A model generated the notes under the pieces. That model worked only from the letters and a program-made list of their open reading frames with translations, did no database searches and was not told the DNA's origin. This document shows, one piece after another, positions 12,633 through 53,429 of a stretch of 64,000 bases of DNA. The stretch is from an uncultured Nitrososphaeraceae archaeon (GTDB taxonomy: Archaea; Thermoproteota; Nitrososphaeria; Nitrososphaerales; Nitrososphaeraceae). Numbering within the stretch: position 1 is the stretch's first letter; each line of letters opens with the position of its first letter. The position numbers and the translations under genes were made by a program. The stretch covers positions 1-64,000 of the forward strand of contig CAVXZB010000012.1 in assembly GCA_963765895.1 (NCBI GenBank). The letters are read 5' to 3'.

Positions 12633-12670
12633 AGACTACACCCAATTACTTTTATATCCTGAATTGCACC

Positions 12671-12692: not shown

Positions 12693-12749
12693 AAAGCAAT
12701 GAATAACTTGATCTAGAGAGTAAAATATAAACTTATTGATGACTTATTT

Positions 12750-34085: not shown

Positions 34086-34241
34086 TCAATAAGAATGAAC
34101 TTCGTTTTTATGTTCTATTAAATGTTTTTTCTTCTTAAATCTTTGATTACATTTTTCGCATTTGAATGGATTTTCAAATTCTAATAAAAAACGTTCTCTC
34201 CGCTGTTCCAGAGTTTCTTCTTTTATTGGTTTGTCTACCAT
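34086..34241 (-). CDS. 51-aa C2H2 zinc-finger microprotein (not in the ORF track)
   Basis: MVDKPIKEETLEQRRERFLLEFENPFKCEKCNQRFKKKKHLIEHKNEVHSY; canonical F-x-C-x2-C-x3-F-x5-L-x2-H-x4-H. Confidence 0.8.
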   Translation of the reverse strand: MVDKPIKEETLEQRRERFLLEFENPFKCEKCNQRFKKKKHLIEHKNEVHSY

Positions 34242-35099
34242 TTTCTTATTGTATTATTATCAAATATCAGGTTAATTACTTATCGATAAGATAGTCATGA
34301 ATACTACTATTTAGCTTTACACCACTTAAACCTATATAAAATAGTGGTTTTAGCTGCAAATAATACAACGTATTAAATATTAATAAGTACATCCTTTCCA
34401 ATAAACCAAATTTATTGCAAATTCCCTAACTAGGATCTTGCCAACATTTGCAGCTATTCATAATCATATAAAAACTGCTTATTTAGAGTAATATGATTAC
34501 ACATAAGAGCATACTACCATAATATCAAGTAGCATGTTTAATTTTAGATTCTGTTATACTCCTTTATTTGTTATACTTAGCCAAGGGCAATAATAGCCAC
34601 AGATGATCAAAAATTTATTCTACTTGATTATATATAATTGAAAGCTACAATGAAAATAAGGATGCTAGTAAATTTTAACGCCTTAGATTTAATGTAAAGG
34701 AAATCATGATATTCATCATGTATCGATCTATTATCTAATTTCTCTCCCGATTTAATTCTATTATATTTCTTTTATATTAGTTAAAGTTATTTCTGATTTA
34801 AGATATTGATCAATGTATCCCATACCAATTCCATTTATATTCTGTAAAGACCGAATTTTCATCCAGCCATCCAACAACTATATTTGTAGCTCACACCAAT
34901 TCTAGCATACTGTGCTTTTGTACACTAGAATTATTATCACTAATCGTTATTAAGAAAGCTTCTTTGGACTAGTATGAAATGACTGTCCCTAACATTTTGT
35001 TCTATTTTTGTCTACATTTGCTATGAATACTAAAAATATAATCATCAAATTAACTTTAATTAAAGTGATCAGTGTAGAAAAGCTAAGGCTACTTTTTTA

Positions 35100-35324
35100 G
35101 CCACGGGCAAGCATGGGAGATATATTGATTTAGTAAAGGGTAGAGTAGATGTTGATTTTGTTGCTCGCTTGGAGCGAAAGAACGACAGTCATACTATTTC
35201 AAATAAGACATTTGACTTTTCAAAAACTACGGTCCGACAGCTAATTCAAGACGGATATGACGAGAGTAAGGAACAGATGAAAGCAATAGTTGCTAGTTTA
35301 AAGAGGGAATTGTCTGGCACATAG
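35100..35324 (+). pseudogene. Isolated 3' fragment of a patatin paralogue
   Basis: Near-colinear with 4885-5109 (VDVDFVARLERKNDSHTISNKTFDFSKTT). Confidence 0.85.
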
Positions 35325-35544
35325 TCACTTTTCAAAAAACTACAATCCCGCGAGCGAAATTGAAAAAATAGTTAGAAAAATTTCAAAGGGACGCTAATTG
35401 ACCATCAAAACAAATAGCCAAGCTGTCAATTAACAAGTATAAAAGATTCACAATGCTTATCCAAGACTAGCTCACCATATAAAAATATATAAACAAGCTG
35501 GCTAAAATCCATGGAAGATATATATCAAATAGTGTTCAATTTCT

Positions 35545-35772
35545 ATGAATAACATGAAGAGCTTTAACGATTGGTGGGGGACTGTTCCAGAAGATCTTCG
35601 ATATAAGTCACGTAAGGGAGATGAAGTAAACAAACCATTGCTAAACCAGGTTAACTATGTCCTTTTAAATCTTCATATGGCTGGAAAGCATGATGCAAAG
35701 CCAACTCATGAAGAGCTAAGAGATTGGCTGCATAGTGGTCAAGTAGATGTCCTTAGAATAAGTGCGAAGTAG
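35545..35772 (+). CDS. Hypothetical protein
   Basis: Clean 75-aa ORF with globular composition and TATA-like ATATATAT upstream. Confidence 0.65.
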   Translation: MNNMKSFNDWWGTVPEDLRYKSRKGDEVNKPLLNQVNYVLLNLHMAGKHDAKPTHEELRDWLHSGQVDVLRISAK

Positions 35773-36033
35773 CAGCAGAAAAAATTTATTAGCGGTTGCA
35801 CCGGCAAGATATAGCTTACTATCAGCAATACCGAAGAACAAAATAAAGCATAATGGCATTGGCTTTAATTCTATGCCAATGATGGATCTAATTAGTTAGT
35901 TGATAATTTTGTTCCTATAAAGTCTGCCTCATAATATGGATTTTACGTATATACTAATGTAGTAGTGCATGAACTTATTTTTGCAAATTGTATAATATAT
36001 TGACCATAACAAAATCAGAAGTTAATTAGGCAA

Positions 36034-36314
36034 ATGTCTATAGAAATAGAATTGATATAATTAACTCAATCTTAAATACTGCCTATGATAACGAAGTAAA
36101 ACAAATAGAAATCTTAAATAAAGCAAACATTTCTCAAGTAATATTTAAAGGATATTTACCACTATTGCTAGAGTCTGGTTTAATAGAAATTAGACGACAC
36201 ACTGATACTTATAGAACTACTGAAAAAGGAATTCAATTCACAGATATTTACGAGAAAATGAAGGATTTAGTATTATTGAATAATGAAGAGCCCAAAATAT
36301 ATTCAGTATTTTGA
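36034..36314 (+). pseudogene. Winged-HTH transcriptional regulator, frameshift just after the ATG
   Basis: YRNRIDIINSIL...ILNKANIS...YLPLLLESGLI...YRTTEKG. Confidence 0.75.
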
Positions 36315-36509
36315 TCAAGATCCATAGAGTCTAAGAGAACCTTAGAATTTTATTATAATGAAATCACTCCAAAGGATATAGACGAGCGTTAATTTTCTGT
36401 ATTTAATACATTGTTAAGAATACATCATAAGTATAATAAAAGTAATGTGATATTTAATTATATTATATAAATAATATAGAGATTATTCAATTAATGAATA
36501 ACTTTCTAT

Positions 36510-36803
36510 ATGACACCAGACAGTTCAATATGCGGCGGGTCTATTGTAAATAAAGAAGTAACAAGGCATTATTGTGAATCTGCTTTAATGACTGCAGTTC
36601 ATATTCTGATTTGTCTGACTGAAGGTAGGAGCCCCGAGGACATAGCCAAGGATTTTGGTGGTAATATCGAATTAGTTTGTGTTTGGATAGATTACATAAT
36701 ATGGATTAACTGGGTTTGTAGAAATACGGTTGACCGAACCTGGGTAGCTTCAGACAGCGGAAGAAGGTGGATTGAAAAATATCATATAATGCTTCACAAA
36801 TAG
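36510..36803 (+). CDS. Hypothetical wHTH-like protein
   Basis: SPEDIAKDF...WVASDSGRRWI pattern. Confidence 0.55.
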   Translation: MTPDSSICGGSIVNKEVTRHYCESALMTAVHILICLTEGRSPEDIAKDFGGNIELVCVWIDYIIWINWVCRNTVDRTWVASDSGRRWIEKYHIMLHK

Positions 36804-36934
36804 CCTCTTCTAGATTTTATTATTGTAAATATATACATTTTGATGCATAAAATCACATAAATCTTAACCGATTGCTTTATACTTCATTAAAAGGCATTTC
36901 TTGAATGCGAAAAGGAGGTAATTTGTAGTCAGAT

Positions 36935-37150
36935 ATGAGCTTGAGATTATCCAATAAAACCCGCAATTACTCTTCATCATCTCCAGTATTCATTTTGTGT
37001 GACAAATGTTACTGGTGCGCAACATATCTTGATAAGAAAAGAAGACCGACACATTATGACTGTCCACAATGTAAAGCTGGAATTGAGCTGTCCAGCTTTC
37101 CTATCATGTCCAACGAATCATTTACTTTTATAATGAAAGACGTGGAGTAG
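36935..37150 (+). CDS. Zn-ribbon protein (possibly 3'-damaged)
   Basis: FILCDKCYWCAT...CPQC...LSSFPI. Confidence 0.65.
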   Translation: MSLRLSNKTRNYSSSSPVFILCDKCYWCATYLDKKRRPTHYDCPQCKAGIELSSFPIMSNESFTFIMKDVE

Positions 37151-37182
37151 AATTACAATTCGGATCCAGATAACGCTAATTC

Positions 37183-37421
37183 ATGAAGAAATGAGCTGAT
37201 TTCTAAAGAGAACGAGAGATGAGCAAGAAAGAGATAGACTAAACCTAGCAATTGTAGCAGCAAACAATCATTATGCTGGGTTGTGTCCTGGAACTGCTAA
37301 CACATTTAGGAAAATGCTGGATTTGTCAGAAGTGACATGGAGTAATGTCGTGATTCCGAATACTGGGGAAACTGTATCTCGTAACACAAAACAAACTAGT
37401 CTATCGGATTTTTTGAAATGA
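37183..37421 (+). repeat. DUF72 3'-end copy A
   Basis: Aligns to 48137-48373 (AIVAANNHYAG..PGTANTFRKMLDLSEV...KQTSLSDFLK). Confidence 0.9.
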
Positions 37422-37524
37422 GATCTAGGTTCAGTTATCCCATACTTATCACATAACACTGAAGATTGTTTTAATTTATAGAATCTCTCAAGAGTTAAAT
37501 ATCCTAATAATTTGTTATTATTAC

Positions 37525-37935
37525 ATGTTAGGAGATCTAATAAGTGAATCGAAAGGCAAGATAACAAGTCAAAGAGTATTGGATGTTGAAGGTGGGATAC
37601 CAAAAATAGAAACTTCTTTCTCAGAAACAGGGAACTATAGAGGTGCAGAGACAACTTCTACTATAACATATTGGTCTACTCCTAGATCTGGTGGAGCGAT
37701 ATATGGTCAAGGTAAAGGGATAGTGATGAGTAAGGATGGACAGGAAATGGCAACCTGGACTGGGCAAGGCATGGGATGATTTACTAACCCAGGAAAGATA
37801 AGATTAACAGGCTCGTTGTTCTTTAGCACATCTTCGACTGGAAAGCTAGCATTTCTTAACAACTTGGTAGGAGTATTTGAATATGAAACAGATGAGTCAG
37901 GAAATACGTCATCCAAAGCATGGGAGTGGAAGTGA
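37525..37935 (+). pseudogene. Hypothetical beta-rich protein with in-frame TGA at 37777
   Basis: The frame continues past the TGA as FTNPGKIR...GKLAFLNNLVGVFEYE...WEWK; consistent with CGA to TGA. Confidence 0.75.
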
Positions 37936-37989
37936 TTGTTGGCAGCAGAATATCCGAAGCATAAAACTAAACGCTAGATGCATAGTATG

Positions 37990-38780
37990 CTAATAAAATC
38001 TTAATTCTTCCATATTTAACTTGTCTTTAATATTCGTAAAATAATCTACAATTTTATCCCTGTTGTATTTCTGTAATTTTTCAAACCTGGATACGTCATC
38101 AAACGTCTCTTTATCATTTGATACATAATCAAGTCCTTGTTCCAGCACCATATCAAACATTTCTCGATTTGTTAACGCTTGATAAAGATATTGTTTATTT
38201 TTTATTTGAACAGCAGATGAATCTTTTCTGGCTACTGCAAGGGCAATTTCCACAGTGAAGGCAGCCAATTTAAACAGATCTAGAACGTTAAACCTTGCAT
38301 CCGATCCTTTTTCATTCTCGTAGGGACATTACAATATTTTTCTGACCTTGTCTGTTTTCTGGCATATAACTACCGAAATACTTCTTATTTAATTTCTTAG
38401 TTACTGGATCTTGCCAGTAAGCATAGTAGTAAGGACCATGCTGATCATGATGACAGTTGGCTTTTTTACATTTGACATATTCTTTTCTTATCGTTGCATT
38501 TCCAGGTATTGCCTTGAGTCTACCAGCACAAGCCAAATCTATTGCTTTAACTTTGTTTATGAACTTGGTTGACCTCTCAATTCTTTTCTTAGCATTTGCA
38601 AGTACTTTTTGTAACGAAGTTCGCTTATGTCCAAAAGGAGACTTACTCCAACCAGGCAGCTTCTCATGGTTGTTCTCTTTATAAAACCACGCTAGCTCAT
38701 TAAAGTGTGATGCAGGACTAGAAGAGTTGTCATTATGATTATTGTCGTTAGATAGATTATGATAGATTATGATATCTGCC
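37990..38780 (-). pseudogene. DUF6788-like protein, frameshifted
   Basis: TIRKEYVKCKKANC..HGPYYYAYW...KKYFG; frame open upstream of 38536; tail in the 37990-38268 frame. Confidence 0.6.
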
Positions 38781-38874
38781 TAAACGCCTTGTATTAGTCA
38801 ACTCTTACAATTATTTAGCATATCCTTATGAAGTTACCTTTACTATCATTATTCGTAATTTCTTCCTCAGTTAA

Positions 38875-39232
38875 TTATATTAGATCAACTAGGTATATTA
38901 CAAAATGAAATCTAGTCACATATAAACAAGCTAGCGTTAAATTGCAACGTCCTTTGAATATCTCCCATCGTTTCCTCCTGACCTCTTCTATTCCATCAAT
39001 GCACTGTTTGTAATAATACGCCAAATCAGACTTTGCTAGATCAAACACAAATCGTTGCGACAACTGTTTTAAAAACTTTGACTTCCCTACTGATAGTTGA
39101 TTGGTCTATCTTTAATTCAAGTGCTATTTCAGTTTCTGTCATTGACTGTGCTAGAGTTCCAACTTTTCTGCATCTATCTTCAATTTTGAAATTATGCGTT
39201 ACCAAGATTGTTATATGCATTGTTCTATTCAT
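38875..39232 (-). pseudogene. HTH protein of a multicopy mobile-element family (possible terminase small subunit)
   Basis: LAQSMTETEIALELKIDQSTISREVK, then SQRFVFDLAKSDLAYYYKQCIDGIEEV in another frame. Confidence 0.7.
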
Positions 39233-39558
39233 GAAAGTTATGTTTATGCATTTTGAGGTAGTGATAATTACTACAATATAATAATATTGGGGAATATCCT
39301 ATTATCACGTATTTTGAACTAATATATTCATATCGCTATCCGATAAACTTATGATATTATCTTTCTGCTCGTCTAAAGCAAAGTCACTTATCTGGACATT
39401 AGACTCCTTTTACATTTCCACTAATTTTTACTAATCTTTTGCCCATTTTCATCCAATTTGATAGATCGATGATGGATTCTACCAACTCCTCTCCCTTATT
39501 GGTTAATCTATATTCTACCCTTGGAGGGATTTCATTGTATGCTTACTTCTTTCGTAAG

Positions 39559-39789
39559 ATGAATAAATCTCTAGTTATTGCAACGGTTATTGCAACTGTT
39601 GCAGTAGGTATGATAGCGTCAGCAGCAGTAATTGGAGCCATTAGCCAAGTAGCCCATGCGGGGCCAGGAAGTTGTCCGAAGTGCTTCCACCATCATCATC
39701 ACCATCATCATCATCATCATCACCATCATCATCACCATCACGACGGACACCACGGCGGTCATGGCATTTGTCCGCCGAGGTGTGCCTGA
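39559..39789 (+). CDS. Secreted poly-histidine / Cys mini-protein
   Basis: MNKS plus hydrophobic signal ending AHA; mature GPGSCPKCF-H18-DGHHGGHGICPPRCA; mixed CAT/CAC codons; T-tract after the stop. Confidence 0.8.
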   Translation: MNKSLVIATVIATVAVGMIASAAVIGAISQVAHAGPGSCPKCFHHHHHHHHHHHHHHHHHHDGHHGGHGICPPRCA

Positions 39790-40019
39790 TAGGCAGACCT
39801 CCCACCTATTTTTTGAAATAACATCAAGTCAAACTGTCTAACCATTTTTTTATAACTTATTTTTGTATTTTGTTGTGAAGTCATGGATGGACGATTATTA
39901 TATTGATGAGTATGAAGTATATTAGATAAGAATCAGATAGGTAATCCTTAACTACCGCATTAACCAAGTCAATGCTCCAATTATGACATTACAAATCCGA
40001 ATCAGTTGTAAAGAAGAGT

Positions 40020-40133
40020 TTGAAGTGTAAGCACTGCGGTATGCCACAAACAGGAGTGTATCTAACGTTAGACGGCAAACAATTCGCATGGGTTGACTCG
40101 TGCATTCCTAACCAAGCACATGAGTTTGTGTAA
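40020..40133 (+). CDS. 37-aa Zn-binding microprotein
   Basis: TTG start; MKCKHCGMPQTGVYLTLDGKQFAWVDSCIPNQAHEFV (CxxC...C...H). Confidence 0.5.
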   Translation: MKCKHCGMPQTGVYLTLDGKQFAWVDSCIPNQAHEFV

Positions 40134-40174
40134 TACAATACTGCTTTTATCCTCGTTTTTTATCTATCCTCTTC

Positions 40175-40558
40175 TTGGACAGATGTAAAGGATTTTGTAA
40201 AGAAGAAGCGTTCTCTGTAAAGAAACTGCTGGTAGATTTTCAATACACGTATTTTATGTCTGAGTTGAAGAGAAAGGTAGCAGTTCACTATGCCAGACCT
40301 CCACGTATAATCAACAAATACACTTACAAACATAAGCAAGCAGGACTCAAATGCTGTAAGTCATATGAATACATAACTGCTGAACCTATATCATTATCAT
40401 GTTGTCCATGTTATTCATTCCAATATTCTACACAAATACATGATAATAAGCGAGATAGACTGTTGAGAACAACAGGAAGCATTACTAAACAAACAGCACC
40501 AGCAAAGCGTCCTATTCCAATGCATGAGATAATAATATGGCATGAAACTACAACTTAA
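40175..40558 (+). CDS. Hypothetical basic Cys-containing protein (degenerate Zn ribbon)
   Basis: LKCCKSYEY...CCPC; start uncertain. Confidence 0.4.
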   Translation: MDRCKGFCKEEAFSVKKLLVDFQYTYFMSELKRKVAVHYARPPRIINKYTYKHKQAGLKCCKSYEYITAEPISLSCCPCYSFQYSTQIHDNKRDRLLRTTGSITKQTAPAKRPIPMHEIIIWHETTT

Positions 40559-40675
40559 AAGTCACAGATCTGACGAAAGCAACAGACCATAATGACTAAT
40601 CAGATATTTACATTTGTGAATACGACTATGCCAATAGCGATTTACAACAGAATTACTAGCAATTATCATTTCAAA

Positions 40676-41413
40676 TCACAGCACATTCTTTGCAGACTTT
40701 TTCTCATAGTGATGTAATGCAAGTCTAAAAGCATCGAATATATCGTTGTAGGAAGTTGCCTCCTTGTCTAAAGTTCCTTCCCCTTTCTCCACTGCTGTTC
40801 TTAATGAAGTTATTAGTTTATCAAATTTAGGATTTATTGCAACCAAACCATGATTATCTTCTAAAAGCATTTTAGTATGTAGCAACATCTTTTTGTGCTC
40901 TTGAGCAAAATTAATTGGAATTATAAACATATCATTAGCAGTAGTCCAATCATGATCTGGGAAAGTGTGTTTGTATTCTGCTATTGCTTGATCATAATCT
41001 TCCCTTTCTCCTCGTTGTATCTTTAATGATTTTATGAAGGAAGGATTTGCTGCATCCACGTATATCTTGCTATTCTCTGGTGTAAAGTGAAAGTAATTGG
41101 TCAAATTCCATACGACATTTAACATCTGGTTAAAGTCTGGTCTTTCGAATTGATCTGCATATATTATTTGTATTTGGCCATCGACAAACTGAGTTGCAAC
41201 AACACCAAATGCAGAACTACCATAACCTGGATCTAGACCTAAGGACTTCCTAGCAGCGTATGTAGTATTCAGATTACTTTGATTTCGCATATCTTTTGCA
41301 GTATCATATTCTACACTATATTTTTGACCAAGTTCTATTGCTTTTTCAATATCTTTGGTATGGAATACGTTTCCTATCTTGCCTAAATATTTACTACAAA
41401 TATGAAAATGCAT
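40676..41413 (-). pseudogene. Terminase large subunit C-terminal RNase H-like nuclease domain (ATPase domain missing)
   Basis: GNVF, GLDPGYGSSAFGVV, IYVDAANPSFI, DIFDAFRLAL. Confidence 0.72.
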
Positions 41414-41623
41414 AGGATATGCTTATCATAGGAAAAATACTTATTTTGTAATGAGAATTCCACTGTAGATAACTGTGCTAAGTATTTTGTCAATATCATC
41501 TCATTTTCATTTATTCTCAATCGGTGAAAATATGGATAAAATAGTGATGAATTGGATAATCGTATCTATAATACTCCCGTTATCGTTATTGGATACTGCC
41601 AGCTATTAGAGGGATTAGTAGGT

Positions 41624-42255
41624 ATGGAAGCAAAAGCGAAGATTCTGTTTGTTTTGATTGTAGGCCTAACAATGATAACCTCATCTGTTTTCGCTACTGG
41701 ATTGTCAGTGCTAGCGAAAGAGAATGGAGGCGGTGGTGAAGGAGGAGGAGAAAGTTCTGGCTCTGATTCCGGTGGGGATAGTAGTAGCGGCGATAGTAGC
41801 GACTCAGATAACAGCGGCGGTGGTAGTAATGACAATTCTCCTCATGACGACAAGAACAAGGACAAGATGAGAGGCGATACACAACCAAAACAACAACAAG
41901 ATGATGGGCTTGTTCATATCCCTGAACAGGGTTGGGTAGATGGAAAATGGACTGGAGGCTCTGAGGAGATGTTTAACAAGGGCCCGAATGGTGATGGAAA
42001 AATTCCACCTGGATGTTCTCATGGAGGATGCAGTCCCCTGTCAATGATCAACTGCCACCAAAACAACCTCCAACACTAATACAAGAAATCAACATCATTC
42101 TAAACATACACAAAACCTCGCATTCAAGTCATAAGACAGGAATAAGCAGAACTTGCTATGATGCGCTAAAGGTAGCATGGATGGATAAAGTCTATCGTGG
42201 TCAGAACCAGCAAGTCTATCAATTTCTGAATAGCTGCCTAGGAGTCAAAAGTTAA
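41624..42255 (+). CDS. Secreted Gly/Ser/Asp-rich protein (-1 frameshift in the C run at about 42036)
   Basis: Signal peptide MEAKAKILF...VLA; GGGEGGGESSGSDSGG tract; second frame ends CYDALKVAW...FLNSCLG. Confidence 0.65.
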
Positions 42256-42258
42256 TGG

Positions 42259-42387
42259 CTGGAACTCCTAACACATTCAGGAAAATGTTGGATTTGTCAG
42301 AAGTGAAATGGAATGAGAGTGTTCAAGTCCCCACGGCTGAAGAACTGGTAACACAAAACAAACTATTCTATCAGATTGTTGGAATGA
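42259..42387 (+). repeat. DUF72 3'-end copy B (shortest)
   Basis: GGAACTCCTAACACATTCAGGAAAATGTTGGATTTGTCAGAAGTG...GGTAACACAAAACAAACTATTCTATCAGATT. Confidence 0.88.
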
Positions 42388-42891
42388 GACACAGGGCTCA
42401 AATATCGGGGTATATGACAACGCTGTTGATTCAATTTAGAATATGTTGTCAATTCAAGTGTCTCAATAACGGAATCATCTTCACCAACATAAATGTCATT
42501 ATCCATTACTTCTACAGTCATGATTTCTAATCTCTTTGGCTAAGGCTCGATTAAAGTCTTCTAGATGCGTCTTGCTGCCAGCATACGCTGAGTAGTAAGG
42601 TGTTGTTGCTCCAACTAGTGATGTCTCCATGTTGATTGTGCGTCCATTGTCAGCTACACATTGGGCTGCTCATTGTATACAAAAAATGCGGCTTTAGCGT
42701 TGACAGTAAACATGATAATTTTGGTATAATAAAGCTTTTTTTAACAATTATCTAACATGGCTTAGAAAATTATTAGTATATTAATTTATAGATTAAACTA
42801 GGATCTTATTATTAATCCTAATCACAATGTTTTTATCTCTCATTATTGTTGACGGATTTTAGGTATAGCAAAGCAGTATGCCTAATAGTGA

Positions 42892-44523
42892 GTGACCTAT
42901 GTGGACACAATAATACAGTTAGCAGTTTTGATTGGAGGAACATTAGGTCTGGCAATTCCTTTTGGGCTCTATATTGCCAGAATGATTTCCTTCGAAATGA
43001 GACCATTAGAGAAGACACTTGCTAAGGTAGAGAGTGGGTTCTATAAATTAGTTGGAATTGATGCATCGAAACAGATGACATGGAAACAATATTTCTTTGC
43101 TTTATTTTTGACAAACATGATAGTAGTAGTTTTTATTATTTTAATCCTGACGTTGCAGAATTATTTACCGTCACACCAAAACTTCAAAGGGCTATCATTA
43201 GATTTGGCATTTCATACAGCAATTTCATTTGTGACAGATACTAACCTGCAGCACTATGCAGGAGATCAACAACTTTCCAACCTCTCGCAAATGGTTGCCA
43301 TTACATTTACCCAGTTTGTGGCTCCTGCTTCTGCGATCGTAGCTGCTTTTGCTTTTATTCGATCATTTATTAGAAAGAATTTTGGCTTAGGAAATTTTTA
43401 CATAGACTTTATACGAGTATTAATAACGCTATTACTTCCTGTAGCAGTAGTTTCATCGTTGGTGTTTATGACAACAGGAGTTCCTCAGACTCTTGATACA
43501 ACTGTAACTACACATACTCTGGAAGGGAATAAGCAGGATATTAGGGTAGGCCCAGTAGCTTCTTTACTAGCTATAAAACAACTCGGTAGCAATGGCGGCG
43601 GATTCTATGGTGCTAATTCTGCGCATCCGTTTGAAAATCCCACAGGACTTTCAAATATGTATGAAATGTTTTTGATGCTTGTAATTCCTTTGTCGTTTCC
43701 AATTGCATATGCTAAGCTTATAGGAAAATGGAGAGGGGCGTCGATTTTGGTAGCTATGCTTATATCATTTGGTAGCTTGTTGATAATAGCTTTCACAGCA
43801 ATTAGTGGACCATCATTGCTAGAAACTCGATTTGGTAGTTTTGGTAGTGTGTTGTTTAATATTGTATCACTTACTACTAATACAGGAGCTGTAAATTCCT
43901 CACTTTTGGGAATGTCACCAAATGCAGTAACTTCATTGTTACTTGCCATGTTTGTTCAAGCAATTCCTGGAGCTGTTGGAACAGGAATGATGACTATGAT
44001 TATCTATGTTATTTTGACTTTGTTTATAGTAGGTCTAATGGTGGGCAAAACACCAGAGTTTTTAAGTATGAAGATTAGTCCAAGGGTTATAAAATTATCA
44101 GTATTCATATTTTTGATTCATCCTGTATTAATTTTAATTCCAACTGTAATTGCATTCTCCAGTGGTAATGCTCAGACAATAATGGGAGAAGAAGGAGGAA
44201 AACTAACTCCATTAGGATTTACTCAAACGTTATATGAATATACCTCAGCAGCAGCTAATAATGGTTCTGATTACTTTGGCACTTCGGCAAATACACCATT
44301 TTTTAATGTCTCAACCGCAATAGTAATGTTTCTTGGTAGATATGCCCCTTTAGGCCTGATGCTAGCTATAGCAGGTTCATTTACAATAAAAGATAGAAGA
44401 GAAGTTATAGAACCAATAAAAACGCAAGGACCTTTGTTCATCTCAGTATTGATCGTTATAACCTTCCTGCTCACAGCTCTCACCTTCTTCCCATTCTTAG
44501 TTATAGGACCGTTTTCAATCTAA
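42892..44523 (+). CDS. kdpA: Potassium-transporting ATPase subunit A
   Basis: TNLQHYAG, KQLGSNGGGFYGANSAHPFENPT, LMVGKTPE, YEYTSAAANNGS. Confidence 0.97.
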   Translation: MTYVDTIIQLAVLIGGTLGLAIPFGLYIARMISFEMRPLEKTLAKVESGFYKLVGIDASKQMTWKQYFFALFLTNMIVVVFIILILTLQNYLPSHQNFKGLSLDLAFHTAISFVTDTNLQHYAGDQQLSNLSQMVAITFTQFVAPASAIVAAFAFIRSFIRKNFGLGNFYIDFIRVLITLLLPVAVVSSLVFMTTGVPQTLDTTVTTHTLEGNKQDIRVGPVASLLAIKQLGSNGGGFYGANSAHPFENPTGLSNMYEMFLMLVIPLSFPIAYAKLIGKWRGASILVAMLISFGSLLIIAFTAISGPSLLETRFGSFGSVLFNIVSLTTNTGAVNSSLLGMSPNAVTSLLLAMFVQAIPGAVGTGMMTMIIYVILTLFIVGLMVGKTPEFLSMKISPRVIKLSVFIFLIHPVLILIPTVIAFSSGNAQTIMGEEGGKLTPLGFTQTLYEYTSAAANNGSDYFGTSANTPFFNVSTAIVMFLGRYAPLGLMLAIAGSFTIKDRREVIEPIKTQGPLFISVLIVITFLLTALTFFPFLVIGPFSI

Positions 44524-44723
44524 TGAATAATATGATATTAATGAAGATATTGAAAGACTTTAAAAAGAAAATAAGCCGGTTCGATAAAAAAGATAATGAT
44601 ATGTCTATTTTGAGTAATAACAATAATGATACCAATAACGCTATTAATAAGTAGAGCAATGGAAATGGACATGCCGGTCATAAAATTAAGATTGCATTAG
44701 ATTCCTTAAATCCACGAATAATT

Positions 44724-46923
44724 TTGGATTCACTAACTAAACTTGACCCACGATATCTAGCAAAAAATAATCCGGTCATGTTTACGGTAGAAGCAGGATT
44801 TATAGTAGTCCTTACTATTGCATTGCTTCCAAGTAATATTTCAATAGAATTTGTAAATCAAGGTAAAGCGCTATATTTTCAGACTGCGATAATACTGATT
44901 TTAACCGTCTGGTTTGCAACATTTTCAGAATCATTATCCGAGGCCCAGGCTAGAGCAAGGGTGGATTCTCTTCGTAATCTGGAAAAAGAAGTATCTGCAC
45001 ACAAGATTGTAAATAATGAGAAGGAAGTTACTGTAACTTCAACTAGTCTTAATCCAGGAGACGAAGTAATGGTGTATGCAGGTGAAATAATACCTAGAGA
45101 TGGTCTTGTAAATGATGGTAAAGCATTTGTAGACGAATCAATGATGACAGGAGAATCAAATCCTGTGTTCAAGGAAGAAGGAGATCATGTAATAGGTGGA
45201 ACTAGAGTAGCAAGTGATAAGCTAATAGTAGAAATTACCTCTGAAGCTGGTAGAAGCTTTCTAGATCAGATGGTTAGTCTCATACAGAATGCAACCAGAC
45301 CAAAGACCAAAAATGAAATTGCCTTATCAATGTTACTAGCAGGATTATCTTTAATTTTTATAATGGTAGTTGGAACACTTTTATTCTTTACAGATTTTCT
45401 TGGATTAAAAGCAGATATTGCTACACAAGTGGCTCTACTAGTTGCACTTATGCCTACTACAATTGGTGCGCTACTTCCAGCCATAGGCGTTGCTGGCATA
45501 ACCAGACTAGGAAGGGACAGCATCATCGCAAAATCTGGTAAAGGAATTGAAGCTGCTGGAGATTGCGATGTTTTGATATTAGATAAAACAGGAACAATTA
45601 CTGAAGGTAGTAGAAGTGCTGTAGAATTCATACCTATGAACGAATATACTGAAAAAGATATAGGACAAGCAGCTTTCGCAGCGTCTATCCATGATACAAC
45701 ACATGAAGGCAAATCAATAGTGGATCTTGCAGAAGAGAAAAAGTTTGTTCTGCCTCTTTTAGAAAAAATAATTCCAGCTAGATCCATTCAATTCACTGCT
45801 GAAACCAGATGCAGTGGTATTGAATTTATTGCAAATAAGGATGTTATACTAAATAAGGAGCAAGAAGATGAATTCCGATCATTAGCAAGAGATATCATTG
45901 GTAGTAATAGTAGTAAGGCTACAAGCAGCAGTGACGGGGATAAAAAGGTAGTTAATCCAACAATAAAAGATATTGAAAGAGATGTAGAACGTGCTAGTAA
46001 AAGTAGAGTCCATGATCTACTAATAAAATTAGAGCAGACAAAAGGTGAAGTAAGAATTCTTAAAGGCGCAGTAGATATGATAATCGACTTTACAGGACCG
46101 AATGTAAATCAAGCAGAAATAAAATGGAAAGCACAGGAAATTTCTAAGGTTGGTGGAACACCATTGGCAGTATCTATAAATAATGAAGTAATCGGACTTG
46201 TAGCTCTAAAAGATAATCTAAAAGAAAACATTAGAGAGAGACTAAACGAGGTCCGTTCTACTGGGATAACCACAGTGATGATTACCGGAGACAACCAATT
46301 GACGGCTCAAGTCATTGCCAGAGAAGCTGACGTTGATGAAGTAATAGCTGAAGCAAAACCTGCAGACAAACTAACCAGAGTTGAACAAGAGCAACTAAAA
46401 GGACATGTAATAGGTATGGTAGGGGATGGGACTAATGATGCCCCAGCACTTGCTAAAGCTGATGTAGGATTAGCGATGAACAGTGGAACTGCAACCAGCT
46501 AAAGAAGCTGCAAATATGGTGGATTTGGACTCTGACCCTTCTAATATAATGAAAGTTGTAAAACTTGGCAAACAGCTGCTTATGACACGTGGTGCCATTA
46601 CCACATTTAGCATTGCTAATGATGCCGCCAAATACTTTGCAATTCTTCCAGCAATGTTTGTAGGAACTACTCCCAAATTACAAATGCTAAATATAATGCA
46701 TCTTCACAGTCCTGAGACGGCCATATTATCTACATTAATATTTAATGCTATAATAATACCCGCCCTAATTCCTATCTCATTGAGAGGAGTCAAGTTCAAG
46801 CCAGAGCCGCCGCAAAAGACATTTATAAGAAATATGTTAATTTATGGTTTAGGTGGGGCTGCGTTACCATTTATAGGTATAAAGGCAATTGATACGCTAT
46901 TATCTGCTTTCATTGGTAGGTAA
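44724..46923 (+). CDS. kdpB: Potassium-transporting ATPase subunit B (P-type); +1 frameshift at about 46495, start uncertain
   Basis: [34 protein letters not shown], then [14 protein letters not shown]...[13 protein letters not shown]. Confidence 0.95.
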
Positions 46924-46947
46924 GTATATAGAAATGAGGATGAAGCA

Positions 46948-47472
46948 ATGAAGCAAACCATAAAAGATGTGTTACAAAGTAATACCATACTGCTACGAGA
47001 ATTATTTGATCAAAATATAAAACCTTGTCTAAAAGTCGTAGGACTCATGATTTTAGTAGTCGGAATAGCCTATCCTCTTATTCTAGTGGCAATAGGAGAG
47101 TTTGCATTACCATATCAGTCCAGCGGTAGTCTTATAACTTTACATGGAAAAGTAGTAGGTTCAAAACTAATTGCTCAAGAGTTAAAATCTCCAAAATTCT
47201 TTCATTCAAGATCTGCCTCAGACTCGGCATCAACTGTTGATCCACACATTACTCCAGAAAATGCTTTTGCACAAATCTCTAATGTAAGTAAAGTAACTGG
47301 AATCCCTCACAATGTTCTCGAAACTTTAATTGATCTTAATATAGAAAGGAATAAAGTAAGTAATGCGTTGGTCTTTGCTCCACAATATGTCAATGTATTG
47401 GAAGTAAATCTTGACTTGGTGAGACAGTATCCTGAACATTATCATGAATTCTTAATAAATATGGAGAAGTGA
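46948..47472 (+). CDS. kdpC: Potassium-transporting ATPase subunit C
   Basis: GIAYPL, GSLI...GKVVGSKLIAQ, FHSR, SASTVDPHIT, VNVLEVNLDL. Confidence 0.93.
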   Translation: MKQTIKDVLQSNTILLRELFDQNIKPCLKVVGLMILVVGIAYPLILVAIGEFALPYQSSGSLITLHGKVVGSKLIAQELKSPKFFHSRSASDSASTVDPHITPENAFAQISNVSKVTGIPHNVLETLIDLNIERNKVSNALVFAPQYVNVLEVNLDLVRQYPEHYHEFLINMEK

Positions 47473-47479
47473 GGTCAAA

Positions 47480-47566
47480 CTGGATTCAGTAATCACAATT
47501 TTTATCTCATTCCTTGTTGTATCTTCTGCTACATTAGCCTACTCATTGATGAGAGCAGAAAAGTGA
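47480..47566 (+). CDS. kdpF: KdpF-like 28-aa membrane peptide (CTG start)
   Basis: (M)DSVITIFISFLVVSSATLAYSLMRAEK; GAGGT SD at 47471; resembles the KdpF C-terminus Y-x-L-x-x-(A/P)-E. Confidence 0.6.
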   Translation: MDSVITIFISFLVVSSATLAYSLMRAEK

Positions 47567-47829
47567 CTAATAATGTGAAAAGAACTTACATAGCATTGTT
47601 TGCATCTAATATTTAAAAATATCTATTTTATAATCTTGTATGTATTCCATTAGCTATTAGATATACTATGTTTGTCTACAAACCAACAGATCCACCGGAT
47701 GCACTATAATCTCATTCGTCCATTCATGAGTTGCAGGATTGACAATATCCAAATAGATCATAGTCCATCTTCTACGATTTCTTGCCAAATATTTGTAGAG
47801 GCGTATTAATCTACTCAGGAGGCAAAAAT

Positions 47830-48373
47830 TCGCTTTATTGATACAGTTACCACCTTCGATGGGTATAGTTGAAGGCATGGATGGTCTGAGAGTATTATCA
47901 TACCTGAATTAGATAGAAGATTCAAATATGCTGTAGAAGTTAGAGATAGTTTGTGGTTTCAGGATTTGGCATATAGTTTTTTTGCAAATAACAATATGTG
48001 CATGGTCTGGAGTCAACTCTCAGATATAAGAACTCCTCCAATAGTTACATCAAATTTTATCTACATAAGATTCATTGGCGATAGGACTATACAAGAAAAG
48101 GATTTTGGTAAGATACAAAAAGACAGAGCTTTAGAAATGAAAAAGTGGTCTAGATTTGTAAAAAAAGCCAAAGAAGAGCAGCGGGACAGATTAAACCTAG
48201 CGATTGTAGCAGCAAACAATCATTATGCTGGATTCGGTCCAGGAACTGTTAACACATTCAGGAAAATGTTGGATTTATCAGAAGTGGCATGGGAGAATGT
48301 TGAGATTCCTGATACCGAAATGAGAACATCTGGTAACACAAAACAAACTAGTCTATCAGATTTTTTGAAATGA
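47830..48373 (+). pseudogene. DUF72-family gene, 5'-truncated (longest copy, C)
   Basis: LLIQLPPS, YAVEVR, FIYIRFIG, NNHYAGFGPGT; ends KQTSLSDFLK. Confidence 0.88.
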
Positions 48374-48648
48374 GTCAGGATCATGGATCATAGCATGTCA
48401 AGGAGATAGTGCTATAACTAGATTTATTAAGATACGAAGCTTTCTATCCTACTAATCAGACCTCAGACCTAGTTGGTATTTTTGCTTCGGCTTCCTTATG
48501 GCATTCGTATGTCGGTCCTACTTGCAGTGGTTGAAATGACATTGGGGAGGCATGTGCGTAAAAGCAACCATATTACGACTAAATCCTATTTGAACAGTAA
48601 CTGCCTAATTCTACTAACAAATCATGTCAAGTCATTAGACCTGTCTTA

Positions 48649-49015
48649 TTAGTTCGTCCCCCAAGGATTATCTATGACAAATCGCCAAGAACCATCAGAC
48701 TGTTGACGCAGAACGTCCGCAGATTTAGCAGTCATGTTAACAGGATTACCATCAGATCCAGTTCCACTGAATGACCATTCAGTAATTACAAAAGCAAGAT
48801 CGCTTGCTTGAAGAACCCTCTTTACCTTTAGATCTAGTTTGCCCTTGAAGTCGATAAAACTACGTAGACTTTGGTGTATACCATCTGGACTTTTTGCAAG
48901 TTGTCCTGGTTGCGACACAAAACACGCATCAGCCTCATAGAGCGTCATAAGAGAATTTTAGATCCCCTGTGTTAATACCTCTAACTACTGAATTGAGCAC
49001 TTATCCGGATGTCAT
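48649..49015 (-). CDS. SnoaL/NTF2-like (DUF4440/YybH) protein, 5' end frameshifted
   Basis: LYEADA, ASDLAFVITEW, SADVLRQQSDGSWRFVIDNPWG. Confidence 0.8.
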
Positions 49016-49239
49016 TATTTTAGACAAAGGGCTTTGTAATAATTGTCACTTTAAAGTTTGTTACGAAAGAGGCCTTTTGATGAATTCAAAAAGATGAGCC
49101 GATAGGTAATGCTTGGAGCGAATCACACACTAAGGGTTGTATGTCTACACCATTTTGGATATACACCATTTGATACTAATACACAAAAACCTACAAAATG
49201 GAAGTTCAGTGTTCGTATTAACAATAATTATTCGCGCCC

Positions 49240-49623
49240 ACCATACATTATTCGGTCTATATGTTCTAAGAGCTCGTCATTTGTTATAGGCTTCGAATAA
49301 AACAGTTAGCAGGAAGTGAAGAAAATATATCAGAATATGACCCATAATACATTTGTCCAGCAGTAAGAAAGCATATTTTCAACTTATCATCACGTTTCTT
49401 AATCTCTCTATAAAAGGAAAAACCATTCATCTCCGGCATCTTTATGTCAAGAATTAATAGATCGTAGAAGTGAGGCTTGAAATTGTCTAGAGCAATGAGA
49501 GGATATTCATATGAATCAACTTTGAATCCATATTGTTCCTATGTTTTCGCTATTGCGGTATTAACATCGGGTTCATCGTCGACTACTAGAATTCTTTTTG
49601 ACGTTTTGTTTCACACTTTCCAT
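49240..49623 (-). pseudogene. Response-regulator receiver domain with in-frame stop
   Basis: KRILVVDDEPDV...T*EQYGFKV...YDLLILDIKMPEMNG...ICFLTA. Confidence 0.85.
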
Positions 49624-49708
49624 TTAGTTTCAGAATTGTTCCTTCGTTTCGACATCATCATGGATTATTCGCTTTTAGTCACACAATAAAGAATGATCAT
49701 TCATTCAT

Positions 49709-50089
49709 TCATTTTGGATAGAAATCATGTGACTTATCTACTCTGCCAGCATATTCATAAATCAACAATCCGAATCCTACTATTGCAATAACAACAAACA
49801 CTATTTCAAAGTCCATAGATGACAGATTTTTCATTTGGGGTGGAGTAGTATAGGGTAGTCTTGCTCCTCCATTTACTTCCTCTTTTACAAATTGTGATCC
49901 ATAATATATAGCACCAGTAAAACCGATTACTGCCATAACTATACCTAAAACAATAATGGATTTTCCTTTAAAGTTTAGACTATTGCTAGTATTGCTGCTG
50001 TCATTTGATTCTGATGGACCTTTTTTTCTTCCCAATCTTGTTATGAATCTAATATTACCTAATCCCTCTTCATGAACTGAAAATATCAA
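49709..50089 (-). CDS. Two-TM hypothetical membrane protein
   Basis: Two hydrophobic helices; start uncertain. Confidence 0.6.
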   Translation of the reverse strand: MIFSVHEEGLGNIRFITRLGRKKGPSESNDSSNTSNSLNFKGKSIIVLGIVMAVIGFTGAIYYGSQFVKEEVNGGARLPYTTPPQMKNLSSMDFEIVFVVIAIVGFGLLIYEYAGRVDKSHDFYPK

Positions 50090-50159
50090 AATTCTTTATC
50101 TATTGAACCTTGCTTAACATTGGTAATCAATATGTAATCATCATCATAAACTAAGCTAG

Positions 50160-50416
50160 GATTTTAGAGATGAAAAAATGGACTAGATTTCTAAAGAGAG
50201 CCAGAGATGATGAAGAACAAAGAGATAGACTAAACCTAGCAATTGTAGCAGTTAATAATCATTATGCTGGATTGGACTGGAACTGCTAGCACATTCAGAA
50301 AAATGTTGGATTTATCAGAAGTGACATGGAATGAGGATGTTCAAGTCCCCAAGATAGAAGGAGCATCTGGTAATACAAAACAAAAATAAACTAGTCTATC
50401 AGATTTTTTGAATTGA
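50160..50416 (+). repeat. DUF72 3'-end copy D
   Basis: TTAGAGATGAAAAAATGGACTAGATTT...AATAATCATTATGCTGG...CTAGTCTATCAGATTTTTTG; shares downstream TGAGATCTA.GTTCA with copy A. Confidence 0.9.
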
Positions 50417-50670
50417 GATCTATGTTCAACTAAATTGCGTTCAGATGCTCTATACCTTCAGATTATGAGACTATCATTCCGTTATGAAATCTTTGTTTAC
50501 ATCAGTGTCGTCCGAGTTATTGTATGCATGCACCGGCTAGGGACAACTGATGTCAAAGGCTCCGCATACATCGACCTATTATTGCAAGGACTTTGCTATT
50601 ATTCCAACTAAGAATAACTCGTAACAATATTTCTAAATACAGATATCCAAATAACCGAGAGATACATGAC

Positions 50671-51141
50671 ATGGCCGAGTTGAGTCTCGAAGGCCTATTT
50701 GGGATAGGTGAAGCGATAGGAATTATTGCCACTCTGTTTGTTATATTATACTTTTCAAGAAAACAAATGCAGAGTCTCTCAGTAGACATCCAGACAAAGG
50801 TTCTTAATGACTTGGATGAGAAGGTTCACAAGATGGCAGAAATCATAATTGAAAAACCATCGATGCAAAATGTCATATATAAACTTGAAAAACCATCAGA
50901 AGAGTTAGCATTTGCGTATTATATCTTGTTTATTTGTTCTCATGCATATTCAATGCGCCAAAGAAAAGTGCTCAATGAAGATGAATGGAAAGGATGGTTG
51001 CTGTGGATGAGAAACTGCTTTAAATATGGAACTTTGAGCGAACAATGGAAACTAATCCAATCAGAGAGATGGTTCAATCCTGATTTTGAGAATTTCATAA
51101 ACAAAGAGGTAGTGGCTAAACCAGAGGCTAAATCGATATAA
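50671..51141 (+). CDS. Hypothetical protein with N-terminal TM helix
   Basis: MAELSLEGLFGIGEAIGIIATLFVILYF, then a helical domain. Confidence 0.7.
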   Translation: MAELSLEGLFGIGEAIGIIATLFVILYFSRKQMQSLSVDIQTKVLNDLDEKVHKMAEIIIEKPSMQNVIYKLEKPSEELAFAYYILFICSHAYSMRQRKVLNEDEWKGWLLWMRNCFKYGTLSEQWKLIQSERWFNPDFENFINKEVVAKPEAKSI

Positions 51142-51177
51142 TCTATTTATTATCTGATATGTACTTCAGTATTAGAA

Positions 51178-52278
51178 TTGATCACTAGGCAAGATGTTAT
51201 AAGTATTATTAATAAGTATAACTCAAAAGACATCACTGTTGGGACTATAGGTAGTCATTCTGCATTAGAGATTATGGATGGTGCTAAAGACGAAAATATG
51301 AAAACATTGTGCATTTGCGAAAAAGGGCGAGAGACTCCATATAAGAGATTTAAACGGATAACTGATGAAATTGTCTTACTGAATAAGTTCTCTGATATAA
51401 TGAGTAAAGAGAATCAAAAGAGATTACTACAATCTAATACAATTATTATTGCACATAGAGCATTTACTGCATATTTAGGTTATGACAACATAGAAACCAA
51501 ATTATATGTACCTATATTTGGAAATAGAAGTCTCCTACGTGCTGAAGAACGTAATGCTCATAGGAATCAATATTATCTACTTGAAAAAGCTAGAATTAAA
51601 CACCCTCGAATTTACAACAAAGCATCTGATATTGATGGATTAGCAATGGTTAAAATTCAGGAAGCAAAACGAAAATTAGAACGGGCGTTTTTCTTGGTTT
51701 CATCATATGAGGATTTTAAAAGAAAAAGTAAGAGTAGAGTTGAAAAGGGACTAATCGCGGAAGAAGACATTAATTCTGCAGTTATTGAAGAATATGTAGT
51801 TGGTACACATTTTAATTTTAACTTCTTTAGTTCTCCATTAAAAGAAGAGACTGAATTTCTAGGTATCGAAAGAAGATTACAAACCAATATTAATGATTTT
51901 ACTAGCCTATTGCCAGCTAAACAACAAATGGAAATTGAAATCGAGCCTCAAAATATTGAGGTTGGGCACACTCCAGCGAGTATTCGTGAATCATTATTAG
52001 AAAAAGTATTCGAAATAGGCGATAGGTTTACTGCTTTTGTGAAACAAGAATATCCTCCTGGGATAATTGGACCATTCTCTTTACAAAGCATAGTAACATT
52101 AGAACTTAATTTAGTAGTTTATGATGTCTCATTAAGAGTTCCAGGAAACCCCATAATGGCAACCACAAGTCCATACACAAAATATTATCATGGTAATACA
52201 ATGGGCGTAGGACGAAGAATTGCAATGGAGATCAAAAATGCGATTACAGAAGGAAGGCTTGAAGATATTGTAACATAA
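51178..52278 (+). CDS. purP: FAICAR synthetase PurP (ATP-grasp)
   Basis: GTIGSHSALEI, PIFGNRSLLRAEER, ERAFF, EVGHTPASIRESLLE, IIGPFSLQ, GRRIAMEI. Confidence 0.93.
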   Translation: MITRQDVISIINKYNSKDITVGTIGSHSALEIMDGAKDENMKTLCICEKGRETPYKRFKRITDEIVLLNKFSDIMSKENQKRLLQSNTIIIAHRAFTAYLGYDNIETKLYVPIFGNRSLLRAEERNAHRNQYYLLEKARIKHPRIYNKASDIDGLAMVKIQEAKRKLERAFFLVSSYEDFKRKSKSRVEKGLIAEEDINSAVIEEYVVGTHFNFNFFSSPLKEETEFLGIERRLQTNINDFTSLLPAKQQMEIEIEPQNIEVGHTPASIRESLLEKVFEIGDRFTAFVKQEYPPGIIGPFSLQSIVTLELNLVVYDVSLRVPGNPIMATTSPYTKYYHGNTMGVGRRIAMEIKNAITEGRLEDIVT

Positions 52279-52283
52279 ATTCG

Positions 52284-52715
52284 TCATCTTTCTATCGCCT
52301 CCTCAAATAAATTCCTTCGTATCCTTATTGGTACATCATAATAAGCAGCTAATGCAATAGAGTCTGAAGCGCGATAATTCCGCAATACTAGGTATTCCTT
52401 CCTTCTTTTGAAATATAAATTTGCCCGTAAAACCGAGCCGCTTTGATATACTTTTACTTCAGTTAGAAGAAGATCTTGCATGACTGCTATCTCTTCTACT
52501 AGATTATAGATTGTAGGTATTGTATTCTTATCGCCTTCTTGAAACCTTGATATGTGTCTAGCAACTTCACCAGAAAATGCACGCATAGGAAACTCTTTTC
52601 CTTCAAATGTTTTTAAGATGACGATACCTTCTAGTCCTAGTTGATCTGCAAAACCAACGTAACTTATTTTTACCAGTACATACTCTGCATCTTCTTCTGG
52701 AAAGCTGTCAGGCAT
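52284..52715 (-). CDS. Bifunctional nuclease family (DUF151) protein
   Basis: PTIYNL, RANLYF, RASDSIALA..YDVPI. Confidence 0.8.
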   Translation of the reverse strand: MPDSFPEEDAEYVLVKISYVGFADQLGLEGIVILKTFEGKEFPMRAFSGEVARHISRFQEGDKNTIPTIYNLVEEIAVMQDLLLTEVKVYQSGSVLRANLYFKRRKEYLVLRNYRASDSIALAAYYDVPIRIRRNLFEEAIER

Positions 52716-52724
52716 TACAACTGA

Positions 52725-52994
52725 TTATACATTGCTTGGAATTAAAGGTTCTAGTTCATCATAAGTCTTTGCTTCTATCAGAATTGCAGTTCTTGAAAAG
52801 ATTAAAAACATACGGTTCTGCACTTTCGGTGCTCTTGGATGATTTACATTGTTTTGCTGGCGATAGTATTGATAAAAATAGCAGAGTGAATAGACTGGGC
52901 CATCGAATAGCAACATAGAATCTCCAAGACTATATGACCATTCTCCATAATGGTGTACTGAACTATGTTCAGTCCCAGTTATATCATATATCAT
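52725..52994 (-). CDS. Hypothetical protein
   Basis: ORF co-oriented with, and ending 10 nt before, the DUF151 gene; no motif recognised. Confidence 0.35.
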   Translation of the reverse strand: MIYDITGTEHSSVHHYGEWSYSLGDSMLLFDGPVYSLCYFYQYYRQQNNVNHPRAPKVQNRMFLIFSRTAILIEAKTYDELEPLIPSNV

Positions 52995-53429
52995 TACCTA
53001 ATTTCTAGTTTGGTTAAGCCAGCTTTCATCGATATATTACCGCTCCATGTTACTCTTATAAATCGAATAGTCGTAAGACCAATTAGAACAAGAATTGCAA
53101 CACCGTAAAGTTCGGGATACTAGATCCTTTGTCTTTACTAGCCCATTCAGCCTACATTAAGCGATGTTATCAGAAAGTAGATTAATAAAAAAAGAGTATG
53201 TAATTTATCCGAGGCTGAGAACTTATCCTGCTTTCAACCATTCGTATATAATCAAATGGCCAAGAAGTAATGGAATGATATATTTGTGCTTATAAATGCT
53301 CTTATGATACAATAGATCATAGAGATCGCGTAGGGAAAATTCGATTAAAGTGATATTGTGATATATCGGAAATATGAAAGTATAATGTAAAGTTCAATGA
53401 ATATGTCTCAATATATTATTATAAGATCA

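Follow-up and report, generated by a model that had tools for sequence, protein, structure and literature searches.

Several described systems resemble parts of the locus presented here, a window (the whole stretch of DNA that was analyzed) of 64,000 nucleotides from an uncultured Nitrososphaeraceae archaeon (GCA_963765895.1, contig CAVXZB010000012.1; G000:C12:1-64000) in which four truncated copies of a DUF72 gene lie among accessory genes. In homology-facilitated illegitimate recombination, known from bacterial transformation experiments (PMC6382021), DNA is anchored by homology at one side, joints elsewhere are blunt or use short homology, resident DNA is replaced, and no dedicated recombinase is involved. 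The present locus shares these features, but here we infer the process from genomes, the anchor is a broken protein gene present in dozens of copies, and DNA uptake is assumed only. Additive flexible genomic islands also hold variable modules in a fixed gap between core genes, split by direct repeats of a gene piece (PMC4898812); there, site-directed integration has duplicated part of the target, mostly a tRNA gene, whereas our repeats are paralogue pieces that diverge from each other and vary in length, and they do not form the island borders. Thaumarchaeal integrated elements share the lineage, the proviral and integrase debris and the tandem arrangement (PMC6563490), but carry short, near-identical attachment (att) sites or target site duplications and a restored target gene, neither of which was seen here; DUF72 terms were absent from the main text and four supplements of that paper, in which arCOG-only tables could still include DUF72. 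Suicidal SSV-type integrases likewise leave many split pseudogenes of one gene and hybrids rebuilt from pieces of different origin (PMC7253208), but in their case the split occurs at a single att site within the integrase gene, whereas the breaks in DUF72 fall anywhere along the gene and its product is no recombinase. Gene duplication has been described as the main route of genome expansion in Nitrososphaerales, the large soil genomes of which are, like the present one, rich in paralogues (PMC7603488); that study counts gene families and, in the passages concerned, gives no DNA-level mechanism, and DUF72 terms were absent from five of its supplements, in which arCOG-only tables could still include the family.

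We consider the accessory island in this window, with a probability of about two in three, to be a patchwork produced by the repeat-mediated reshuffling of accessory DNA, without a dedicated integration system. As such, it adds a new case to repeat-mediated genome shuffling, one in which the anchor is unusual. No paper on DUF72 anchors or on the PIP-like tail described below, and none combining Nitrososphaera and DUF72, was found in the open-access literature, which misses most subscription papers. The genome in question, G000, is an assembly of 4.9 Mb (36.8% GC, 88 contigs, 88% complete), the contigs of which are cited below as C with a number; those of relatives carry a genome label.

The four DUF72 pieces (tails A to D, Table 1) are, as the preliminary description had stated, co-oriented 3' ends on the + strand, with BLAST E-values of 1e-20 to 1e-54 that are far beyond chance. 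Gene positions are numbered on the longest open reading frame (ORF) copy (C47). The ~15 nt that A and D have in common past the stop codon were confirmed; the statement that all copies end at the stop codon needs amendment, as B and D are frameshifted and end at the position of the stop, out of frame.

The evidence for recombination within these pieces is clearest at tail C. An intact DUF72 gene in the closest relative (G004:C297) has the upstream flank of a DUF72 head on C6 and a middle part resembling the copies on C47 and C73; it is C47-like up to position 967 and tail-C-like from position 973 on, through the SnoaL module. Its identity to the window is 78-86% before and 91-97% after a step near 48230 (MaxChi 67.7, p 0.0003), which is a clear sign of a crossover within tail C (near 48230-48290) that exchanged the SnoaL flank. 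The C73 copy switches to the C type at position 851 yet retains another flank. At tail D, the upstream flank is 93-100% identical to C4 and C41, and identity drops to 75-81% in the distal tail; MaxChi reached ~11-12 with an uncorrected p of ~0.007 in three of the four triples tried (0.12 in the fourth), and a crossover within tail D is likely. In-repeat crossover with an exchanged flank, the mark of repeat-mediated homologous recombination, was thus clear at C and probable at D. Homologous crossovers are thus shown to occur within surviving DUF72 pieces and can swap the flanking module, and neighboring DUF72 fragments share their orientation in 20 of 21 cases. The earlier suggestion that the tails are reused anchors was therefore sound as far as homologous recombination is concerned; an attachment site, tandem integration or a cassette system, which it also proposed, did not find support.

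DUF72 is not the only repeat involved. In a unit present on C4 and G004:C103, the counterpart of 35385-35785 runs straight into the receiver/membrane part, from which it is separated by ~13.5 kb in the window. The switch points of this C4-type unit lie inside the 75-aa gene and inside the receiver pseudogene, and other repeats thus also anchor within the same island. Mosaic pairs made up 3/72 for DUF72, 4/115 for the integrase, 8/64 for the patatin and 6/45 for the receiver family, and DUF72 mosaics were thus not commoner than those of the other three. Co-orientation of neighbors likewise extends to other non-IS families (30 same, 3 opposite, with two of the families overlapping), in contrast to insertion sequence (IS) families (5 same, 10 opposite), and 41% of the genome has a paralogous hit. 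A reciprocal crossover between the C6 head and tail C was considered and abandoned: their overlap of 47-49 nt is real, but the DNA that follows the C6 head is unlike the post-kdp DNA of G004, and no reciprocal product was found.

Breakage of the gene is not confined to this locus. A DNA profile search of G000 gave 61 hits, 6 of which were set aside as distant subfamilies (one, C4:6076, may be a degraded member; one G005 hit was likewise set aside). Tails A to D are 4 of the remaining 55 fragments, among which 2 span nearly the whole gene, while the 5' end is preserved in 23, the 3' end in 18 and neither end in 16; heads are as common as tails, and coverage along the gene has no 3' bias. The preliminary description had named genome-wide scatter with no 3' bias, random orientation and break points of relatives away from the repeats as grounds for refutation; the first of these applies, orientation is not random, and break points in relatives coincide with the repeats in some cases only. 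The same scatter was observed in all six congeneric genomes (at least 38, 43, 23, 31, 41 and 11 matches, with up to 40 candidates scored per genome). When 168 fragments from seven genomes were pooled (G000 plus 113 from fetched loci of the six relatives, a chosen subset) and junctions were grouped by shared flank, 73 independent 5' and 87 independent 3' break classes remained, which fit a uniform spread (p 0.55 and 0.08). No recurring junction word was found among the break points; seeming hot spots are inherited junctions, namely 816/817 (7 copies, 3 genomes), 387-392 (6 copies, 4 genomes) and 797-804 (4 copies in G000). Insertions and deletions are thus shown to have disrupted nearly all DUF72 paralogues of the genus, at points dispersed along the gene. 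Tail A goes back to an old insertion, in which the 97-aa/71-aa module split a DUF72 gene and left A as its right half; on G006:C141, both halves still flank the same module.

Repeat-mediated reshuffling might proceed as follows. DUF72 would travel with a recurring kit of decayed element genes (the HTH/263-aa module, receiver domains and integrase pieces) in fixed polarity. Segments would be copied or imported beside a related piece, one end being joined by RadA-type recombination and the other by a short-homology illegitimate joint, as in homology-facilitated illegitimate recombination, or else they would be inserted by two crossovers. Modules would thereby come to be separated by co-oriented pieces that differ in lineage, and further anchors could arise with every event; DUF72 would be the commonest anchor since it rides in the kit, copies begetting copies. 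Both joint types, homologous and short-homology, do occur, although they are not assignable to one single event. On this account, the locus displays the rebuilding of accessory DNA at the level of bases, with broken paralogues serving as portable homology; modules such as a potassium pump may be placed between core genes without a local integrase, and the mechanism of duplication-driven expansion in Nitrososphaerales becomes testable.

Several points weigh against this account. Tail A gave no crossover signal in the three triples tested by permutation. The genomes are fragmented assemblies throughout, and single mosaics could therefore be strain chimeras, although several junctions recur in independent genomes. 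Events could have run in either direction, and the DNA could have come from inside or outside the cell. In addition, the particular abundance and clustering of DUF72 are left unexplained by repeat-mediated shuffling. With 55 fragments, DUF72 ranked second among 35 representative families, between an IS family (84) and the integrase family (49), and was the commonest and most clustered non-transposase gene repeat catalogued among them. Its fragments formed 21 adjacent pairs less than 10 kb apart, where 7.6 would be expected in repeat-covered DNA and none of 2000 draws gave more than 17; the clustered share was 62%, against 12% in the integrase family. The family is 2.5-fold enriched at the ends of duplicated blocks (18/1062 ends), a value equaled by some small families on 3-5 ends. 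One further repeat (C75:3719-4386, L017), with ~77 BLAST hits only partly explained by a 203-aa ORF family, may outnumber DUF72.

Alternatively, DUF72 might simply be a standing gene of an integrative or proviral element family of this genus, and its fragments passive debris of nested and tandem elements with incidental crossovers. Within 6 kb of DUF72 pieces, neighbors have a fixed polarity (HTH opposite and downstream in 7/7, the 263-aa gene opposite in 8/8 and integrase on the same strand in 9/11), and 42-50% of kit-gene copies lie no more than 5 kb from a DUF72 piece, a zone that makes up 8% of the genome. The A-B interval holds a terminase-like ORF (a terminase nuclease-like domain, with a PHROGs match of only E 0.0055), and the HTH/263-aa module is itself multicopy and broken across the genus. 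However, intact DUF72 genes have differing neighbors in the 12 loci listed, just 11 of 49 integrase pieces are near DUF72, six exact peptide patterns found no match in IMG/VR, which is a narrow test, and no intact element with ends was found. We regard this explanation as unlikely, and it overlaps with repeat-mediated reshuffling, from which it differs mainly in weight. A stand-alone mobile DUF72 unit with terminal repeats was also considered and discarded: alignments of 19 5' ends and 19 3' ends revealed a conserved leader and the coding end with no terminal repeats, no terminal inverted repeats were seen, and near-whole copies are rare and neighbors co-oriented, which does not fit an IS or mobile gene. 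The leader motif does not reveal a wider regulon either, as its five hits are all DUF72-derived.

A more far-reaching possibility, which we hold to be improbable, is that DUF72 is the hub of an integrase-free, self-reinforcing accretion of cargo in large-genome soil ammonia-oxidizing archaea, in which DNA joins any piece, co-oriented pieces multiply and a PCNA-bound nuclease may start the breaks. If true, this process would explain at the DNA level how the known duplication-driven expansion of genomes in this lineage comes about.

The DUF72 protein belongs to PF01904, with a profile score over the cut-off and a TIM-barrel fold, which is closest to DUF72 structures (1VPQ, 1VPY, 1ZTV) and then to UV-damage endonuclease (UVDE; E 2e-4) and endonuclease IV (EndoIV); the gene is a probable DNA-repair gene with a UVDE/EndoIV-like barrel. 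In sequence and fold, it matches the DUF72/YecE family, but its subfamily has in addition a linker and, at the C-terminus, a PIP-box-like motif that the genome's other DUF72 subfamilies mostly do not have. The last codons encode QTSLSDF (window 48344-48373; L031:4211-5059), and 108 of 110 full-length homologues carry a QxxLxxF-type motif, in which the second aromatic residue of the PIP-box definition, QXXhXXaa (PMC4929162), is usually replaced. Since PCNA was not found in G000 at its 88% completeness, the pair from G004 was modeled; PCNA with the last 38 residues scored 0.85 (best control 0.02), with residues 272-283 at the interface. That mark was reached by 116/157 solved and 2/215 mismatched pairs, contacts agreed by at least 65% and partner pLDDT was 51-54; resemblance to solved PIP complexes may account for this result. 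The tails would be alike at the 3' end because the protein ends in this conserved, putatively clamp-binding motif, which would explain their common sharp 3' end without a site there. For DUF72, a widespread family whose function is unknown, the PIP-like tail also offers a testable hint at a role at the replication/repair clamp.

In a separate proposal that we find very doubtful, a clamp-bound DUF72 nuclease would start breaks that favor rearrangement at or near its own gene copies and make the gene a self-spreading recombination hub. Besides the fold and the PIP-like motif, it may draw on the endonuclease activity predicted for Tm1631 (PMC3828134) and on a link of DUF72 to damage-response operons (PMC11791011). 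Flank diversity is high (18 classes at 22 left ends and 14 at 18 right ends; 36 classes downstream of 53 natural 3' ends), but is similar in some other families. DUF72 was present in 121 of 121 family genomes, with a median of 4 matches in 115 genomes outside and 15 in six inside the genus, and its copy number rises with genome size (Spearman 0.50 in the 115 outside the genus, kin not being independent); against this, five single-contig family genomes have only 4-6 mostly whole copies each. Terminal repeats, target duplications and a common junction motif are lacking, and no DUF72 protein with demonstrated activity was found in the portions of the literature consulted.

The idea that an integrase reuses the DUF72 3' end as a site-specific attachment site, by tandem integration or as a cassette array, is hardly tenable. 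It is favored by four co-oriented tails with cargo between them, by several switch points at gene positions 966-979, just past the most conserved 55 nt, by the 18-nt DUF72 piece left beside kdp in G004, and by thaumarchaeal elements that target the 3' ends of protein genes (PMC6563490). However, the same source gives a median att length of 17 bp for these elements, against 130-545 bp here. The tails are 78-88% identical in pairs and fall into three separate clades (A; C; B with D) in a tree of 51 tails, in contrast to near-identical attL and attR; break points are uniform, other switch points lie at 851 (C73) and elsewhere, and the 966-979 cluster falls where the variable linker starts and informative sites accumulate. 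The main integrase family had no match in 35075-51136 by tblastn (best E 0.54), although integrases elsewhere could act in trans. Integron cassettes do not fit either, as the repeats are coding and of variable length, with no common junction word; no Rfam family was detected in 33000-53000 and no tRNA or tmRNA gene in the window.

Comparisons with relatives are also at odds with an attachment site. In G004, the core flanks of which are 97-98% identical, ~1 kb of unrelated DNA that lacks DUF72 links 35074 to 51137. This sets the limits of the island at 35075-51136, wider than first stated and with a remnant of the DUF72 5' leader at ~35422-35468; its borders are not tails, the left one being 2.1 kb beyond A and the right one 0.7 kb beyond D. 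A single fused tail at the empty site, which the preliminary description had proposed to look for, was not seen. A recent patatin piece forms the left edge of the island and the purP promoter its right edge; upstream of the promoter, the DNA is variable in all four relatives aligned, and this spot (51137) is tolerant of insertions. Both island ends match contig C27, which made it attractive to regard 51137-51152 as the att core of a circle opened between the 182-aa gene and a DUF72 head; this is unlikely, as 14 of the 16 nt are invariant purP promoter and other members of the flank class do not have them, and it is more likely that the C27 and C41 copies took the 16 nt from the window locus.

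The B-C interval was at first described as a complete kdp operon between DUF72 tails. KdpA, KdpB and KdpC were confirmed, as were the SnoaL-like protein and PurP, but kdp is not intact, since kdpB has a one-base frameshift at 46493 relative to G004, and the receiver gene is broken. The frameshift could be an assembly error. In relatives, the profile hit DUF72 at 1 of 11 kdp loci, with none nearby in the other 10. The G004 copy is 95.5% identical and keeps just 18 nt of the start of tail C (47835-47852) before it diverges. At five loci in four relatives, the genes next after kdp are homologues of window 13678-13845 and of a ccdA/thioredoxin-like cluster (8866-11234); window 11234-13845 is probably the ancestral kdp site, from which kdp is missing here. 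The segment 13678-13845 was tried as a kdpC remnant and rejected, as it has no direct match to kdp and corresponds to the sequence following kdp in relatives.

RNA-templated copying into 5'-truncated retrocopies, suggested by four local copies alike at the 3' end and different at the 5' end, can be dismissed, as heads (23) outnumber tails (18), neither poly-A nor target duplications occur in 42 tails, the missing heads of A and C were located elsewhere, that of A lying across the module in relatives, and a crude search of long ORFs gave one YxDD-like motif with no reverse transcriptase context.

Table 1. Coordinates of the DUF72 tails and other features of the island in the window. F75w, F263 and HTH155 are family labels of our own.
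Feature	Position	Strand	Remarks
Accessory island	35075..51136	.	16.06 kb; absent here in G004, which has ~1 kb of other DNA
Left edge, 3' piece of patatin-like gene	35075..35337	+	98-99% identical to copies on C25, C26, C59
Remnant of conserved DUF72 5' leader/promoter	35422..35468	+	
75-aa gene (F75w)	35545..35772	+	overlap where C4-type unit passes into C27-type unit; probable crossover zone
97-aa + 71-aa Zn-finger-like gene module	36326..37182	+	old insertion into DUF72 at gene position 816/817
DUF72 tail A	37183-37421	+	gene positions 817-1054
A-B interval	37422..42258	.	HTH/263-aa pieces, poly-His peptide gene, terminase nuclease-like ORF
Pieces of multicopy HTH/263-aa module	37990-38341, 38951-39253		A-B interval
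Poly-His peptide gene	39439-39789		A-B interval
Terminase nuclease-like ORF	40676-41413		A-B interval
DUF72 tail B	42259-42389	+	gene positions 920-1054
kdpABC	42892..47472	+	kdpB frameshifted at 46493 in this assembly
DUF72 tail C	47829-48373	+	gene positions 510-1054; Pfam PF01904 E 1e-6
SnoaL-like gene	48649..48948	-	behind intact DUF72 gene in G004:C297
Receiver-domain pseudogene	49204..49606	-	24-copy family; one stop and one frameshift; mosaic, crossover near 49400-49450
126-aa membrane protein gene	49709..50089	-	same junction to DUF72 tail on C4, C41, C44
DUF72 tail D	50150-50416	+	gene positions 797-1054; probably mosaic
182-aa gene	50593..51141	+	94-96% identical to C41 and C27 copies, there followed by DUF72 head
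Right border, 16 nt at purP promoter	51137..51152	+	14 nt invariant in 4/4 relatives; also behind 182-aa gene on C27, C41

The arrangement in Table 1 was compared with public soil-metagenome contigs. The island was covered in 30 of 30 bins by contigs from three runs of a single study, the sample of which may be that of the assembly itself, and single contigs spanned the A junction (36845-37257, 1 difference), the joint of B with the kdp leader (42285-42682, 0 differences) and that of C with the SnoaL module (48340-48755, 0 differences). In run X7, a 95%-identical contig joins B to the start of kdp and has a longer DUF72 part upstream of position 920; the right border of the A-B module thus lies within DUF72 relative to that strain. 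Tail-to-tail joints in contigs of four runs were short-sided or letter-replaced only and are best read as other paralogues, although contigs drop rare forms; the joints 42316->48340, 48270->50310 and 50344->37377 were rejected as excisions, as their sides measure 25-26 nt or 30 other letters lie between. Metagenome contigs also branch at the same base upstream of the purP promoter (51137).

Among the other features, the HTH protein of the A-B interval is terminase-small-subunit-like, and its module with the 263-aa Cys-containing protein (L013:4236-5463; window 37990-39253) is multicopy in 7 of 7 genus genomes, broken, and often beside DUF72 pieces; the tested piece of the 263-aa protein had no Pfam match. 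The poly-His peptide looks secreted and has a run of more than 20 histidines, and the 5' part of its gene is present seven times in the genome. By eye, single frameshifts split further genes of the window, aquaporin-like and thioredoxin-family-like (2250-2949, 16721-17573); these splits, like that of kdpB, could be real decay or long-read assembly error. Two DUF72 subfamilies stand head to head in three loci (L002:7813-9695, L032:6262-8337 and L012:6980-8300).

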